In this document: piece after piece, positions 2,199 to 8,110 of the stretch
Layout of the letters: the number at the start of each line of letters is the position of its first letter
Position numbering within the stretch: the first letter of the stretch is position 1
Assembly (NCBI GenBank): GCA_030614005.1
Contig: JAUWKS010000096.1
Location: 1-8,852, forward strand
DNA length: 8,852 bases
Direction: 5' to 3'
Source of the DNA: Candidatus Heimdallarchaeota archaeon
Lineage (GTDB): Archaea; Asgardarchaeota; Heimdallarchaeia; JABLTI01
Program-made: the position numbers and the translations under genes
The notes under the pieces: generated by a model
Database searches by the model: none
The model's input: only the letters and a program-made list of their open reading frames with translations
What the model was told of the DNA's origin: nothing

Positions 2199-2204
2199 AG
2201 GAGA
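2199..2204 (+). promoter_or_regulatory. Shine-Dalgarno site
   Basis: AGGAGA lies 8 nt upstream of GTG 2213 and supports that start. Confidence 0.6.
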
Positions 2205-2212
2205 TAAGAGAA

Positions 2213-3304
2213 GTGACCAATGAAAATAGTGAATATATTATAGAACAATTTACGATTGAAAAAGAGAATTTCGATGAGCTTGCAAAGCTAATCACTCAAG
2301 CTTTCTTAAGTGATGAAACAGCAATTCAAGAAGGAGCATCAGTCGCTTTTTCAGAAGCAACGTTCAACATGATGTACGGGGCCCCGTCTATTGACAAAGA
2401 TCTATTCATAAAAGCAACTCATAAACCAACAGGGCAAATTGTGGGATTCTTAGGAGGGATACCTCGAAAACTTTCAATTCTAGGTAAAACCTACAAATTT
2501 GCTATACCATCTTGGTTAAGTGTCCATTCCCAACACCAAAGGAAAGGATTAGCAAAAGGAATGGGAAAGAAGCTATTTGAAATCGGCAACAAACTAGGTT
2601 ACGACGGAGGGTTTTCTTTTCATGAACCTCAACAATATGGACTAGATGTTTCCGTTGCTGTTGCCAGAGATTTGAAAATTCCATTCCAAAGAATTATCAA
2701 ACTAACTCAATTTGTAATCAAATCCTTTAATGTGAATGAAGTTTCCAAAGTAGTAAGATTGCGATGGTATGAAAAATTAGTTTTTAAAATGTTTCAAAAA
2801 TACAAAAAAATCGATTCGGAACATATAAGAAAATATCAAGAAAAAGATATCCAAGATATGTTTGAAATCATCCAGGAACAAGTGAGTCGCAATGAGATAT
2901 CCATAGTTCCTGAACTTGATGATTTGAAATGGACACTAAGTAACCCTGGTGTCAATTGTGTTGTTCATGAAGATGATAATGGAAAAGTAAAAGGATTCAT
3001 GTTAGCTTGGGAGTTTATCCTAGCAGGCATGGGAAATAAATTACCATTCGGGTGGCTTGATATGGTTCATATTCATCGATTGACAACAAAAGAAGCAGGA
3101 GATTTAGCAAACTATCTTTGCCAAACTTCTGAAGAACATGGTTGGTATGGTTTACAAACACCATACATTCCATATTTTGATATGAAACCTTTGAAAGCTG
3201 CTAAATTCTTTTTCTTCGGCAAGGAAATCAACCTTGATCTTTTCAACATGAATAATGTGCCAATACCTGAGAAAGTAGAAACGGTTTATTTTGATTGGCG
3301 ATAA
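2213..3304 (+). CDS. Tandem-GNAT acyl-CoA N-acyltransferase, N-myristoyltransferase-like architecture
   Basis: GNAT motif A is present ([17 protein letters not shown]), followed by a second GNAT repeat ([10 protein letters not shown]...[13 protein letters not shown]). The gene has an SD and GTG start, and stops at TAA 3302-3304. Similarity to NMT is by manual alignment (see findings). GNAT membership is secure; the NMT-like call is less so. Confidence 0.8.
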   Translation: [363 protein letters not shown]

Positions 3305-3390: not shown

Positions 3391-5295
3391 TTATTCATTT
3401 GATTGTTGTGCAATAGGTTGAGAAGAGTTGTTAACGACATCAAATTGGCTGTTATGTAGCTCAGCATAGAATCCATCTTTCTCGAGTAATTCTTTATGAG
3501 TACCTTGTTCTACAATATCCCCATCATCCATTACGAGAATAAGATCAGCATTTCTAATTGTTGATAAGCGATGAGCGATAACAAAACTTGTTCTATTCTT
3601 CATCAAATCGTCCATTGCTCTCTGGATTAGAATTTCAGTTCGAGTATCTACTGAACTAGTTGCTTCATCTAATATTAGAATAGGGGGATCAGCTAATACA
3701 GCTCGTGCAATTGTTAGCAGTTGTTTCTGTCCTTGTGAGATGTTTGTCACTTCTTCATTAATTTCCATATCATATCCACCAGGTAGTGCATGTACGAATT
3801 TATCAACATGGGCTGCTTTTGCAGCTGCTTTTACTTCTTTATCAGAAGCATTTAGACGTCCATACCGAATATTCTCCAGTATTGTTCCGTTAAACAGCCA
3901 CGTATCCTGAAGAACCATGCCAAAATTATCACGCAAATCGTAACGTGTTACTTCTCGAATATCAACACCATCTACCAAAATTGCTCCATCACTCACATCA
4001 TAAAAACGCATAAGGAGTTTAACCATGGTAGTTTTTCCTGCTCCTGTTGGACCAACTAAAGCTATTTTTTGTCCTGGTTTTGCTATAGCAGAAAAATTAT
4101 GGATAATTGTCTTATCTTTGTGATAACCAAAATTAACCTTTCTAAATTCTACAAGACCAGTAACATTTTCAAATTTGAGAGGATCGGTAGGATCGGCAAT
4201 TTCTTCAGATTCACCTAGAAATGCAAACACTCTTTCTGAAGCTGCAGCAGTTTGTTGCAGAACATTAGATGCACTAGCAAGCTGCCCAAGAGGTCGAGTG
4301 AATGAACGCACATATTGAATGAAAGCTTGAACATCACCTATCGTAATGGCACCTTGGCTAGTTAAATAACCACCAAAGATTGCAACAGCAACGTATCCCA
4401 AGTTACCAATAAAAGTCATCATTGGCATCATTAATCCTGAAAAGAATTGGGATTTCCATGCAGATTTGTGTAGAGTATTGTTGTATTTTGTGAATGTTTT
4501 GAGGCTCTGTTCTTCACCATTAAATGCTTTCACAATTAAATGTCCACCGAACATCTCTTCTACGTGACTATTCACGTGACCTAAGTATTCCTGTTGTTGA
4601 TTGAAATGCTTTTGTGATCTTTTTACAATAAAAGCTATCATCAATCCAGATATTGGAATCACTACCATGACGACCAAAGTTAGCTTCCAGCTGATAGTAA
4701 ACATCATAACAAGTACACCAATAACAGTTACTATAGATGACATTATTTGTGTGATACTTTGGCTCAAGGTTTGGTTGATTGTGTCTACATCATTAGTTAA
4801 TCGTGAGAGTATTTCACCATGGGTAGTAGTATCATAAAACTTGAGTTTCATTCGATTCATTTTTTCTGAAACATCTTTTCGTAATCGATATGCTATATCT
4901 GTTGAAACTTTGGCCATTATCCAACCCTGGATGTAGGACAAAAGTGCTGATGCTCCATATAGTGATAATGTTATCAACATTATTTTACCAATATAATCAA
5001 AATCAACTGAACCCGTTCCTCGAATAGAAGCCATCAATCCTTCAAATAGCTCTGTAGTAGCTCTTCCTAGGATTTTGGGACCAACAATATTAGCTGCAGT
5101 AGAAGCTATAGCGATCAGAATGGCAATTATTATTATTGTTTTATATCGACCTAAATATCTGATCAGTTGAAGCATGGTTCCTTTGAAGTCTTTTGCTTTT
5201 TCACCACCTCGCATCATACCACCCATTGGTCCTCCTCGTCTAGGACCACGTTGGGGTTGCTTTCGAGCACCATTTTGATTGTGATTGTTGCTCAT
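3391..5295 (-). CDS. ABC exporter permease/ATP-binding subunit, TM288-like (canonical-catalytic subunit of a heterodimeric multidrug-type exporter)
   Basis: N-terminal transmembrane domain, Walker A GPTGAGKT, Q-loop MVLQ, signature ISQGQ, Walker B ILILDE and H-loop IAHR. SD GGAGG lies within 5301-5307. ATGA overlap with the upstream gene at 5292-5295. Confidence 0.95.
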   Translation of the reverse strand: MSNNHNQNGARKQPQRGPRRGGPMGGMMRGGEKAKDFKGTMLQLIRYLGRYKTIIIIAILIAIASTAANIVGPKILGRATTELFEGLMASIRGTGSVDFDYIGKIMLITLSLYGASALLSYIQGWIMAKVSTDIAYRLRKDVSEKMNRMKLKFYDTTTHGEILSRLTNDVDTINQTLSQSITQIMSSIVTVIGVLVMMFTISWKLTLVVMVVIPISGLMIAFIVKRSQKHFNQQQEYLGHVNSHVEEMFGGHLIVKAFNGEEQSLKTFTKYNNTLHKSAWKSQFFSGLMMPMMTFIGNLGYVAVAIFGGYLTSQGAITIGDVQAFIQYVRSFTRPLGQLASASNVLQQTAAASERVFAFLGESEEIADPTDPLKFENVTGLVEFRKVNFGYHKDKTIIHNFSAIAKPGQKIALVGPTGAGKTTMVKLLMRFYDVSDGAILVDGVDIREVTRYDLRDNFGMVLQDTWLFNGTILENIRYGRLNASDKEVKAAAKAAHVDKFVHALPGGYDMEINEEVTNISQGQKQLLTIARAVLADPPILILDEATSSVDTRTEILIQRAMDDLMKNRTSFVIAHRLSTIRNADLILVMDDGDIVEQGTHKELLEKDGFYAELHNSQFDVVNNSSQPIAQQSNE

Positions 5296-7538
5296 GCAAA
5301 TTCCTCCAATTCAAGTTGTGAAATAGCAATTTCTTTGTAGATATCACATGTTTCCATCAATTCATCATGAGTGCCTTTATTTACGATTTTACCTTCGTCT
5401 ATCACTAGAATTTGCTCTGCATTTTTTATAGTTGAAACACGTTGAGTAACCATTAATACTGTGCTATCACCAGTTTTTTCCTTGAGAGCTTTCCGCAAGG
5501 CAGCGTCAGTTTTAAAGTCTAGAGCAGAAACGCTATCATCGAAAATATATATTGGTGGTTTCTTAACCAGTGCTCGAGCAATAGAAAGACGTTGTTTTTG
5601 TCCACCAGAAACATTCATACCGCCTTGGGCGATTTCACGATCCATTCCTTCAGATTTGTCAAAAACAAACTCAGTAGCTTGTGCAATATCTATTGCAGAT
5701 CTAAGATCTTCATCGTCTGCATTTTCATTTGCAAAAAGTAAATTACTTCCGATGGTACCTGAAAATAAGGAACTTTTTTGTGGAACATAACCTATCTTAT
5801 CCCTTAAATCATGCTGGGTTACTTTCCTAATATCTAAACCATCGATCCGTATTGATCCTGTAGTTACGTCATAGAATCTCGGAATTAGATTTATAACTGT
5901 TGATTTGCCCGATCCTGTTGCTCCGATTAGAGCAGTAGTTTGACCAGGTTGAGCTGTAAAACTAATGTTCTGTAGCACATGTTTCTTCGCCCCCGGATAT
6001 TTGAACGAAACATTTCGGAATTCGATTGTTCCTTTGAAAGATTCTGGAAACGTTTTTGGTTCCTCAGGATCTATTATTGAGGGTTCTGTTTGTAATACTT
6101 CGTTGATACGCCTTCCGGATACCACTGCTCTGGGCAAAATGATAAACATCATTGTTAACATTAGAAATGCAAATACAATCAACATTGCATATTGCATAAA
6201 TGCCATCATATCACCAACTTGCATGGTAGCAGCCTCAACTTCATGAGAACCTATCCAAATAATGCTGATCATTAGCCCGTTCATAATTAACATCATGATT
6301 GGCATCAAAATAACCATCACTCTGTTGATAAATAGTACAACAGATGTCAAATCTTTATTAGCCGTATCAAATCTCTCTTCTTCATACTTTTCTCTATTGA
6401 ATGCTCGAATAACCAGCATACCTATTAGATTTTCACGAGCAACTAAATTGATACGATCAGTTAGCGATTGCATTATGTTGAATTTTGGCACAGCAATGAA
6501 AAAGACAATCAGTACTAGCAATATCAACACACCCACAGCAACTGCGATAAGCCACCACATTGATGCATTTTTATTTAGTGCGCGAATTATTCCACCTATA
6601 CCTAAGATAGGTGCATAGAAAACCATTCGAATTATCATAACAGTAACTGATTGAATCTGAGTAACATCATTAGTAGAACGAGTAATTAACGAAGCAGTGG
6701 AAAAAGAATCAAATTCTATACTTGAAAAATTTTCAACCGTTTGGAATAAATCACTACGAATATCACGTGCCATTCCTGCTGCTGTTCTAGATGCTAGAAA
6801 GCTTACCGAAATTGTACACAACACAGACAGCAAGGTCATTAGCAGCATCAACCCTCCAGCTTTGAGGATATAATTACTCTGTAATTTATCAGTGTCCAGG
6901 CCGATTATTTCATATTCTAATCCTACTGCGAGAGCAGCAATTTGATCGAGCATAATCTCTCCCATTGCTTTGAAATTCTGAGTGATAATATTTGAGAGAA
7001 ACATAAGCTCCTCAAAAGTTAGCATGCTGCTCAAAATATCGAACAAATCTGTTCCAGGAGGAAGAGTTGCTGGATCAATTTCTAGTAATTCCCATATTAA
7101 GGTCGCATTTTCTGGATTTGCCATTGCTTGTTCTAGAGTAAAAACAACTACAAAGGGTTCTACGAATATTTGATGAAGCTCATCGTTCTTATCTTGTTTA
7201 ATATCATTTAAAACATAAATAGATTCATTCTCAAGTATTGGGTAGTCATTAATATAGGAATCATAATCTGTTGAGTTTTCATCTACCAACGTATATTCTG
7301 CAAGTACGGTTGTTTGATTATCAGGGTGTGTGAAAATGAAGATTCGATCCAACAACTCACTTTGACGAATTGCTACAGGGACAGCATTTTCAACCCCACC
7401 TTGTTGGATACCTGTATCAACTATATCGGATAGATAATCAGGTAATGCTAAGTCAAGGTTTGCTTGTGCAGCTAATAAGCCAATGGAAAAAAGAACCAAA
7501 AGCAGATATGGTTTTGTATATTTTAATATTTTAAACAT
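5292..7538 (-). CDS. ABC exporter permease/ATP-binding subunit, TM287-like (degenerate subunit), with a large extracytoplasmic insertion
   Basis: Transmembrane domain plus Walker A GATGSGKS, Q-loop YVPQ, signature VSGGQ, Walker B IYIFDD (Asp in place of the catalytic Glu) and switch VTQR (Gln in place of His). SD GGAG at 7548-7551. Confidence 0.95.
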   Translation of the reverse strand: MFKILKYTKPYLLLVLFSIGLLAAQANLDLALPDYLSDIVDTGIQQGGVENAVPVAIRQSELLDRIFIFTHPDNQTTVLAEYTLVDENSTDYDSYINDYPILENESIYVLNDIKQDKNDELHQIFVEPFVVVFTLEQAMANPENATLIWELLEIDPATLPPGTDLFDILSSMLTFEELMFLSNIITQNFKAMGEIMLDQIAALAVGLEYEIIGLDTDKLQSNYILKAGGLMLLMTLLSVLCTISVSFLASRTAAGMARDIRSDLFQTVENFSSIEFDSFSTASLITRSTNDVTQIQSVTVMIIRMVFYAPILGIGGIIRALNKNASMWWLIAVAVGVLILLVLIVFFIAVPKFNIMQSLTDRINLVARENLIGMLVIRAFNREKYEEERFDTANKDLTSVVLFINRVMVILMPIMMLIMNGLMISIIWIGSHEVEAATMQVGDMMAFMQYAMLIVFAFLMLTMMFIILPRAVVSGRRINEVLQTEPSIIDPEEPKTFPESFKGTIEFRNVSFKYPGAKKHVLQNISFTAQPGQTTALIGATGSGKSTVINLIPRFYDVTTGSIRIDGLDIRKVTQHDLRDKIGYVPQKSSLFSGTIGSNLLFANENADDEDLRSAIDIAQATEFVFDKSEGMDREIAQGGMNVSGGQKQRLSIARALVKKPPIYIFDDSVSALDFKTDAALRKALKEKTGDSTVLMVTQRVSTIKNAEQILVIDEGKIVNKGTHDELMETCDIYKEIAISQLELEEFA

Positions 7539-7564: not shown

Positions 7565-8110
7565 TTATTCTGTTTTATTTTCCTCTTCTTGAAATTTAAT
7601 ATCAAATTTTTTAGCCAAATCTTTGAGAGATTTGAGAGTATTTTCAATTATCGTTTCTGTTTCTGTGGGAGCTTCTTTTGCTAACAGCATAATCATAAGC
7701 TGAATACTCCTCATTTTTTCTGTAATAGCGCAAATTCTCTTTTGAAAAATTTCTGATTCCTCTATATTCTCTATTTCACCCACCATTTGAGCAAATGAAA
7801 GAAATTGAGCAAAATTCTTCATCATATGCTTTTTCATTTCCTTACGAATCTCTTCGAAGGATTTTCGTCCTCGTTTTGTTATTGAATATACTTTCTGAGC
7901 GCGTCCTTTCTCGATTCTTTCCTCAATAGAAACCATTTTTTCGCTTTCCAAAGAGCGTAATGAATTATAAACCGCTGTTTGACTTGGTCTCCATCCATGC
8001 TTTTCCTCTATAGACGAAGTCAGCGCATAACCATGCATAGGTCCCTCTAGTACTATTTGCATAAGAATTAGAGAATCGAGTATTTTGGTTGGGGAGAATA
8101 TAGGAATCAT
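7565..8110 (-). CDS. PadR-family winged-helix transcriptional regulator
   Basis: PadR pattern LILMQIVLEGPMHGYAL...PSQTAVYNSLRSLESEKMV...GRAQKVYSITKRG with a C-terminal helical dimerisation region. It is the first gene of the exporter operon, 26 nt from the next start. Confidence 0.92.
   Translation of the reverse strand: MIPIFSPTKILDSLILMQIVLEGPMHGYALTSSIEEKHGWRPSQTAVYNSLRSLESEKMVSIEERIEKGRAQKVYSITKRGRKSFEEIRKEMKKHMMKNFAQFLSFAQMVGEIENIEESEIFQKRICAITEKMRSIQLMIMLLAKEAPTETETIIENTLKSLKDLAKKFDIKFQEEENKTE

Follow-up and report, generated by a model that had tools for sequence, protein, structure and literature searches.

The window analysed here, the whole 8,852-nucleotide stretch of contig JAUWKS010000096.1 from a Candidatus Heimdallarchaeota archaeon, contains a gene whose product, P0001, is related to the eukaryotic N-myristoyltransferases (NMTs), the enzymes that join a fatty chain to the ends of proteins. 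NMT is listed in textbooks as specific to eukaryotes, and protein myristoylation is regarded as something that arose during eukaryogenesis. The gene is an intact open reading frame (ORF; 2213-3304, + strand, 363 residues in the ORF list and its translation) with a GTG start, at which the N-termini of the homologues line up in the family alignment. We recovered 103 homologues of P0001, and statements on full-length family members refer to 99 proteins; the closest homologue, labelled Heimdallarchaeaceae, is of equal length and 94% identical. Selection acts on the gene, as shown by intact copies in 50 genomes, 43-94% identical, and by the retention of two paralogues in several genomes. We interpret P0001 as probably a stand-alone NMT-type double-GNAT that acts as an acyl-coenzyme A (acyl-CoA)-dependent N-acyltransferase and is a distant homologue of NMT. 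The features of the gene are as follows:

2200..2203, + strand: Shine-Dalgarno-like GGAG, 9 nucleotides ahead of the GTG start, seen on inspection of the sequence
2213..3304 (stop codon included), + strand: complete gene for P0001, a probable 363-residue NMT-type double-GNAT acyltransferase, from the ORF, homologues, AlphaFold2 model and fold matches
2225..2737, + strand: N-terminal GNAT lobe, approximately residues 5-175, predicted to be acyl-CoA-binding and catalytic; matched by Acetyltransf_9 and the NMT N-domain over residues 15-124
2507..2518, + strand: P99-S-W-L102, the beta-bulge position, aligned with N-F-L of NMT
2537..2554, + strand: Q109-R-K-G-L-A114, GNAT motif A, predicted to bind the CoA pyrophosphate; read off the sequence and aligned with R-S-K-R-L-A of NMT
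2810..3247, + strand: C-terminal GNAT lobe, approximately residues 200-345, from hhalign (residues 199-278) and a structural alignment across the entire lobe
3248..3301, + strand: C-terminal tail ending in W362-R363, predicted to supply a catalytic carboxylate; from the fixed chain end and the structural and MAFFT alignments

Sequence and structural similarity to NMT

The similarity between P0001 and NMT is far above chance. With the single sequence as query against all solved structures we recovered NMTs only (yeast NMT, E 8e-4), that of Plasmodium vivax being aligned over P0001 residues 22-268. A profile of 35 family members (A1) searched against the PDB retrieved yeast NMT as its best match (E 7.7e-14) in two collinear stretches spanning both lobes, with the N-lobe aligned to yeast NMT residues 56-165; the best 35 distinct sequences were all NMT, the first non-NMT GNAT appeared at E 0.005, and none of the FemX-, Eis- and MshD-type tandem GNATs was matched at E up to 1. 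Profile-profile comparison of A1 with an 18-sequence NMT profile (A4) using hhalign gave 98.8% probability (E 5e-17, score 131) over 232 columns that take in both lobes and the linker. At the level of Pfam models, the NMT N-domain (PF01233) gave P0001 a score of 32.6 bits, its curated cut-off being 25, with residues 16-117 matched to profile positions 31-129; it likewise matched 29 of the 35 family members.

Across the protein, residues 21-34, 44-58 and 73-114 align with the N-lobe of NMT (phmmer, hmmsearch and hhalign), residues 167-180, 204-240 and 249-266 with its Y-x-H-R-x-L-N, R-x-M-x-x-x-D-(V/I)-P and Y-V-V-E...T-D-F-x-S-F-Y regions, respectively (hhalign), and residues 326-345 with K-F-G-x-G-D-G-x-L-x-Y-Y-L-Y-N (MAFFT). 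The original prediction, made from the DNA alone, had proposed a prokaryotic relative of NMT with the full architecture of that enzyme, on the strength of seven collinear blocks; all seven recur in the computed alignments, and the proposed kinship is upheld by the Pfam, profile and hhalign scores given above, and by the fold.

An AlphaFold2 model of P0001, computed with the family alignment as input, had a mean predicted local distance difference test score (pLDDT) of 93.3 and a predicted template-modelling score of 0.90. In Foldseek searches with this model, the top 50 matches in the PDB were all NMT (E about 1e-21, template-modelling score [TM] 0.75-0.80), as were the top 30 among Swiss-Prot models (TM 0.74-0.80 over both searches). 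VIA-align, run exhaustively against 48,161 representative chains, scored yeast NMT at Z 31.6 (root-mean-square deviation [rmsd] 2.8 Å over 336 residues; model residues 2-363 on chain residues 74-455) and Cryptosporidium parvum NMT at Z 29.6. The best non-NMT match was the tandem GNAT MAB_4324 (Z 22.7), with Eis (20.2), the clavulanate tandem GNAT (19.0), MshD (15.5), HisAT (14.8) and FemX (13.6) below it. NMT thus lies about 9 Z units ahead of MAB_4324, and its alignment covers more residues at a lower rmsd; single-domain NAT structures cover one lobe alone (Z about 15). The comparison with NMT, FemX and Eis structures proposed with the original prediction hence came out clearly for NMT, which scores far above Eis, MshD and FemX and therefore not at the background level named beforehand as counting against the prediction.

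These results also bear on an alternative that would class P0001 with the generic tandem GNATs (Eis, MshD, FemX or clavulanate type) and put its likeness to NMT down to the shared fold alone. Acetyltransf_9, which we take to cover the N-domain of Eis as well, is the top-scoring Pfam model on the N-lobe of P0001, and tandem GNATs do populate the structural list with Z of 13.6-22.7. However, the A1 profile, which retrieves 35 NMT sequences, detects none of the Eis, MshD, FemX or clavulanate types at E up to 1, NMT stands well clear of the best of them in Z and rmsd, and the hhalign alignment runs through the linker as well as both lobes of NMT. The generic tandem GNAT is accordingly already largely refuted, and we consider it very improbable.

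Predicted active site and mechanism

If P0001 is, as we favor, an NMT-type N-acyltransferase, its active site can be sketched by homology. Both phmmer and the profile align S100-W101-L102 with N169-F170-L171 of yeast NMT, the geometry of the site being that of the alignment. In NMT the backbone amides of N-F-L form the oxyanion hole at a beta-bulge, and a corresponding bulge at W101-L102 may polarise the thioester in P0001. Within the family P99 is invariant, P-(S/A/G)-W-L is found in most of the 99 full-length members and the aromatic-Leu pair is mostly kept. The N-lobe would bind acyl-CoA, the donor expected by homology, via Q109-A114, a stretch corresponding to GNAT motif A, which is defined as Q/R-x-x-G-x-G/A (PMC12219266). 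Invariant residues are also abundant in the C-lobe in the family alignment (R206, D212, W240, G272, G280, G310, W311, P317 and P320). The C-lobe is the peptide-binding side of NMT, and in P0001 the acceptor amine would sit in a cleft lined by this strongly conserved lobe.

The chain ends in Arg in 97 of the 99 full-length members, and in Trp-Arg in 96, in a single alignment column; P0001 itself ends in D-W-R, as do nearly all of its family, and the general pattern is a (D/E)-W-R end at about 360 residues. According to the alignment ranges, residue 363 superposes on the last residue of the NMTs of yeast (455), Arabidopsis (434) and rat (496) and of mouse NMT2 (529), and MAFFT aligns the tail with the ...G-L-V-L-L/Q end of NMT, about 20 residues past the Y-Y-L-Y-N-W strand. 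The catalytic C-terminal residue is Leu455 in the yeast enzyme and Gln496 in the human one; by analogy, the main-chain carboxylate of R363 may fold back into the active site as general base. In NMT itself, the terminal main-chain carboxylate serves as catalytic base (PMC12219266). The fixed chain end, superposed on that of NMT, is the strongest hint that an NMT-type mechanism has been kept.

Several observations weigh against so close a correspondence. Acetyltransf_9 scores higher on the N-lobe (45.3 bits) than the NMT N-domain (32.6 bits), Acetyltransf_1, 7 and 9 all match the motif A region, and the NMT C-domain model (NMT_C, PF02799) has no match to P0001 at E up to 1 and matches just two of 35 relatives, weakly (best E 5e-4). 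The Pfam check suggested with the original prediction therefore came out divided: the N-domain passes its cut-off, whereas the C-domain goes unmatched and a generic acetyltransferase model outscores both. The approximately 45 residues that open the NMT core, with the F-W-x-T-Q-P-V segment, are absent from P0001, the hhalign alignment starting at residue 7 against NMT column 118, with 6 residues upstream. The terminal residue is an invariant Arg as opposed to the Leu, Gln, Val, Ile or Met of NMT; Ser, Ala or Gly stands in place of NMT Asn169; and the position matching Thr205/Thr282 lacks conservation in the family. Finally, the last three residues of P0001 have a pLDDT of about 73, and the position of the carboxylate relative to the beta-bulge is that implied by the alignment ranges.

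Distribution and evolutionary relation to eukaryotic NMT

An Asgard host, conjectured originally, agrees with the taxonomy of the contig: the nearest relatives of P0001 are labelled Heimdallarchaeaceae (94%), Heimdallarchaeota, Lokiarchaeota and Gerdarchaeota, and the named relatives overall comprise Heimdallarchaeaceae, Heimdallarchaeota, Gerdarchaeota, Lokiarchaeota/Promethearchaeia, one Thorarchaeota and one Sigynarchaeota. The source genome (3.62 Mb, 90% complete) encodes a second paralogue, P0178 (C33:5155-6243, - strand, L001:754-1848, - strand; 364 residues, 46% identical, ending in E-W-R), and several related genomes have two to four NMT-like matches, in one case as a tandem pair about 150 nucleotides apart (G080:C78). 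The family occurs in 50 of 399 Asgard genomes: all 11 of the host's own family (f1), 25 of 30 in a family of the same class (f3), 10 of 14 in f19, 2 of 4 in f21 and one genome of f31 (G316). It is missing from most Asgard families, several of its own class included, with no gene in the 12 genomes of f5, the 22 of f6, the 19 of f12 or the 135 of f20. Two closed Asgard genomes, of 4.36 and 6.04 Mb, possess the gene; two others from the host's class, likewise closed and of 3.1-3.3 Mb, carry it broken by internal stops or splits (G015:C1:1011617-1012699 and G016:C1:1138307-1141232). The family is thus patchy in Heimdallarchaeia and Lokiarchaeia, and it extends to some bacteria.

Among the bacterial members, P0065 (Smithella label; L118/L119) lies on contigs with a bacterial Mfd/TRCF gene, and a 378-residue subgroup (P0101; L120/L121) adjoins bacterial MutS, GH94 and GH38 genes. 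In the FastTree tree P0065 neighbors the Lokiarchaeia-labelled P0068, which suggests that the gene has been exchanged between bacteria and Asgard archaea. P0065 is flanked by genes for an NDP-forming acyl-CoA synthetase and a 2-oxoacid-dehydrogenase-type acyltransferase-like protein. Beyond the family, an exhaustive search of 1.8 billion representatives retrieved 74 relatives of P0001, among them proteins of about 350 residues at 20-26% identity, several of which themselves pass the Pfam NMT cut-off. One such protein of about 350 residues comes from a Woesearchaeota genome; the two distant relatives of this length whose neighborhoods were examined are both on bacterial-type contigs; in the ESM Atlas, the closest clusters consist of bacterial GNATs, again about 350 residues long; and some AFDB relatives are fused to a carrier domain or to UDP-glucose dehydrogenase. 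A profile of one of these wider groups (A6) found in the Asgard genomes only loci of the P0001 family, plus one weak distant match (G121), and the family is therefore essentially the sole NMT-like family in Asgard archaea. The P0001 family is one branch of a prokaryote-wide, largely bacterial NMT-like family of about 350 residues. With bacterial members on Mfd and MutS contigs and its nearest wider relatives bacterial, it does not qualify as the Asgard eukaryotic signature protein that had been envisaged.

One of the two with an examined neighborhood, the distant bacterial relative P0191, is encoded in an apparent biosynthetic operon (L112:7435-17167) with, in order, genes for a pyruvoyl arginine decarboxylase, the NMT-like double GNAT, a protein of unknown function, an ATP-grasp enzyme, an arginase-family protein, a further unknown, a radical S-adenosylmethionine (SAM) enzyme, another unknown and an AMP-binding (adenylating) enzyme. 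Judging by its gene content, its product may be an acylated agmatine- or polyamine-like compound.

For comparison with eukaryotic NMT we collected NMT sequences from giant-virus-like contigs (350 residues) and from 80 metagenome and metatranscriptome contigs, the latter mostly 440-546 residues long and ending in G-L-V-L-L/Q. There are also compact true NMTs of 350-364 residues that lack the long N-terminal extension and match both Pfam NMT domains strongly (L019-L025 from IMG/VR, probably of giant viruses, and P0172/P0177 on short metagenome contigs). Against the NMT profile A4, other prokaryotic groups scored as follows: A6, 197 (99.7%, E 3e-26); A7, 172 (99.5%, E 8.5e-23); and A5, 101 (97.9%, E 6e-13). 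With A1 at 131, the P0001 family is outscored by A6 and A7 and so is not NMT's nearest relative among prokaryotes. We further built trees without an outgroup, using FastTree and, for 60 sequences, maximum likelihood (ML) under LG+C20+F+G4. In both, NMT forms a single long-branched clade (support 100) opposite all prokaryotic sequences (support 100), with the P0001 family as a clade (support 100) nested among the latter, sister to the P0135 group (83) and then to P0132/P0146 (92). Forcing NMT and the P0001 family together costs 4.3 log-likelihood units (approximately unbiased [AU] test, p-AU 0.378). The sister position to NMT that had been put forward as the phylogenetic check is hence not what the ML tree returns, although the AU test does not reject it. 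P0001 is a genuine but distant relative of NMT, and nothing here makes it the direct ancestor of that enzyme; as the family is broad, largely bacterial, patchy in Asgard archaea and not the closest, the origin of NMT may be bacterial or elsewhere in archaea.

The remaining genes noted in the window are:

811-2079, + strand: radical SAM gene, 422 residues, directly upstream of the P0001 gene, with a weak DUF999-like C-terminal part
3391-7538, - strand: ABC exporter pair, each with fused membrane and ATPase domains, their ends overlapping by 4 nucleotides
7565-8110, - strand: gene for a PadR-family regulator, preceding the exporter pair

A conserved operon around the NMT-like gene was considered and rejected: the neighbors (radical SAM, ABC exporter pair, PadR and an aldo-keto reductase) are common to the genus only. 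Outside the genus the radical SAM gene no longer adjoins the NMT-like gene, and one relative has a 304-residue ORF between the two. From their arrangement, the exporter pair and PadR gene look like a regulated efflux unit; it is convergent on the NMT-like gene, with no relation to it outside the genus.

Candidate acceptors and comparison with known systems

As to what such an N-acyltransferase would acylate, a small amine or amino acid is a serious candidate, at somewhat less than an even chance. P0001 may well be, though we would stop short of calling it probable, a small-molecule acyltransferase on the NMT fold that N-acylates an amino acid, a polyamine- or agmatine-like amine or an amino sugar, with the invariant C-terminal Arg binding a carboxylate or phosphate of the substrate. 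Consistent with this are the apparent biosynthetic operon of P0191, the bacterial GNATs of the nearest ESM Atlas clusters and the AFDB fusions to a carrier domain and UDP-glucose dehydrogenase. HisAT illustrates that a double GNAT whose acyl pocket is long can act on a free amino acid (PMC12219266). In the same direction point the lack of Gly enrichment at position 2 of the predicted proteins (see below) and our finding neither acyl-CoA dehydrogenase nor enoyl-CoA hydratase in the 90%-complete source genome. However, the conserved metabolic neighbors usual for a pathway enzyme are not seen in the Asgard genomes, conservation is very strong throughout the C-lobe and tail, which in NMT make up the peptide side, and NMT is much the nearest solved structure, well before the small-molecule tandem GNATs.

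A protein or peptide acceptor, at its N-terminus or at a lysine and with whatever acyl length, is possible but doubtful, and true N-terminal fatty acylation, which is part of that share, is unlikely. In its strongest form this reading would make P0001 an archaeal NMT, a fatty-acyl transferase acting on proteins that start with Gly or another small residue, such as Arf-like GTPases, and the Asgard ancestor of the eukaryotic enzyme; we think this rather improbable. In its favor, NMT comes closest both in fold and in sequence, the chain end is fixed as it is in NMT, and the AU test does not reject the sister position to NMT. The source genome also has 34 Arf-family matches (e.g., C9:70338-70925, + strand, that is L116:338-925, and, on C73, L117:262-801, - strand), one of which starts M-G-I-L-S-K-L-F-K-K, an amphipathic beginning close to the N-termini of eukaryotic Arf/Arl proteins. 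Against it, 11 of the 12 best Arf-like proteins have no Gly at position 2, most starting M-S-(F/W/L)-L and continuing with a stretch that is basic and amphipathic, and two published studies report that Asgard Arfs have no myristoylation signal and bind membranes without lipidation. Gly is the second residue in 3.5% of the 3003 predicted proteins compared with 6.0% Gly overall, and Ser/Thr occurs at position 6 in 16% of proteins starting with MG compared with 13% of all, a census that is weak because the start-codon calls are crude (the P0001 gene itself was mis-started). The N-terminal Gly lipidation suggested originally thus finds no support, and the proposed genome scan for MGxxxS/T proteins gave no enrichment. 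The confinement of the family to 50 of 399 Asgard genomes, the closer scores of A6 and A7, the nesting of the family in the prokaryotic clan and the absence of the N-terminal NMT core segment argue in the same sense. A complex prediction of P0001 with CoA and residues 2-45 of the Gly-2 Arf-like protein scored 0.02 and bears neither way.

A possible source of long acyl chains is a 3576-residue type I fatty acid synthase/polyketide synthase (FAS/PKS)-like megasynthase on contig C71 (L122:3321-14051, - strand), whose GC content matches that of the genome. Its Pfam domains comprise an NMO-type enoyl reductase, ketosynthase (KS), acyltransferase (AT), acyl carrier protein, ketoreductase and C-terminal phosphopantetheinyl transferase, and it adjoins genes for an acetyl-CoA carboxylase carboxyltransferase (L122:14113-15711, - strand) and a biotin carboxylase (L122:15884-17368, + strand). 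Such a synthase is unexpected in archaea, with their isoprenoid membranes. Together with three adenylate-forming enzymes in the source genome, it makes long acyl chains plausible, if unproven. Its KS-AT part is present in 66 of the 399 Asgard genomes (11/11 in f1, 26/30 in f3, 11/12 in f5, 3/14 in f19 and 11/135 in f20); this co-occurrence with the NMT-like gene is partial, mostly tracks phylogeny and is not support for a functional link.

Alternatively, P0001 might be a protein or peptide acetyltransferase, or another short-chain acyltransferase, that modifies an N-terminal amine or lysine on the NMT-type scaffold, which we also judge unlikely. Its motif A is of the classical acetyl-CoA type (Q-x-x-G-x-A rather than R-x-x-R-x-A), and generic acetyltransferase models are among its best Pfam matches. 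Ser is the commonest second residue in the genome (15%), and Arf-like proteins start M-S-F-L; Ser-starting N-termini are acetylated in eukaryotes. The failure to find beta-oxidation genes in the genome is also in keeping with short chains. On the other side, single-domain NAT structures match one lobe only. Least conventionally, P0001 might be an Asgard protein-lipidating enzyme that transfers a medium or long acyl chain, maybe from the FAS-like synthase, to the N-termini of a few proteins such as the Arf-like M-G-I-L-S-K-L-F or M-S-F-L types. We hold this to be improbable; were it true, acyl-anchored membrane targeting of small GTPases would predate eukaryotes.

Returning to P0001 as a probable NMT-type N-acyltransferase, a homologue of NMT in Heimdallarchaeia and Lokiarchaeia opens the prokaryotic roots of this enzyme to bench experiments and to work in culture, and identifying the substrate of any family member of about 350 residues with the conserved ...W-R end would fill a real gap. 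An NMT-type family in prokaryotes challenges the eukaryote-only view of NMT, with the proviso that the fold alone does not imply lipidation. Our literature search returned no paper naming both N-myristoyltransferase and Asgard, and a 2026 preprint on Asgard structural clustering has no mention of NMT or GNAT. 'NMT-type' double GNATs have been described in archaea and bacteria, a Thorarchaeota protein included, from structure searches, with the caution that activity is not inferable from fold (PMC12219266, Nat Commun 2025). These are prokaryotic double GNATs with a C-terminus reaching the active site as in NMT1, an arrangement predicted for P0001 too; the study does not define a sequence family or a C-terminal motif, nor does it report a distribution or phylogeny.

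Comparison with known double GNATs places P0001 as follows. HisAT/NAT16 and the archaeal Ta0821-type proteins are likewise double GNATs; their N-lobe is active and their pocket can admit long acyl chains, but HisAT reaches just Z 14.8 to the P0001 model, and its type is defined by a beta7-beta8 hairpin with a Trp and by a C-terminus short of the active site (PMC12219266). The mycobacterial tandem GNATs (MAB_4324 and Eis) and the clavulanate tandem GNAT share the tandem fold (Z 19-22.7) but differ in escaping profile detection and in aligning over fewer residues at higher rmsd; in several of them the active lobe or the C-terminal arrangement differs (PMC12219266). The prokaryotic groups A5, A6 and A7 are similar to P0001 in length (about 350 residues), architecture and sequence (20-26% identity; the A6 profile scores 163 bits on P0001), and 18 of 31 members end in Arg as the P0001 family does, but they form separate clades, of which A6 and A7 score nearer to eukaryotic NMT. 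Eukaryotic NMT itself differs from P0001 in its N-terminal (ribosome-binding) extension and F-W-x-T-Q-P-V segment, its R-x-x-R-x-A motif A, its Leu, Gln, Val, Ile or Met end where P0001 has Arg after Trp, its NMT_C match and its long branch apart from the P0001 clade. What the two share is a two-lobed double-GNAT architecture collinear over lobes and linker (Z 31.6, TM 0.75-0.80, 13-18% identity), the aromatic-Leu beta-bulge position and CoA-binding helix, and a chain end at a fixed distance past the last strand that superposes on the catalytic C-terminus of NMT.

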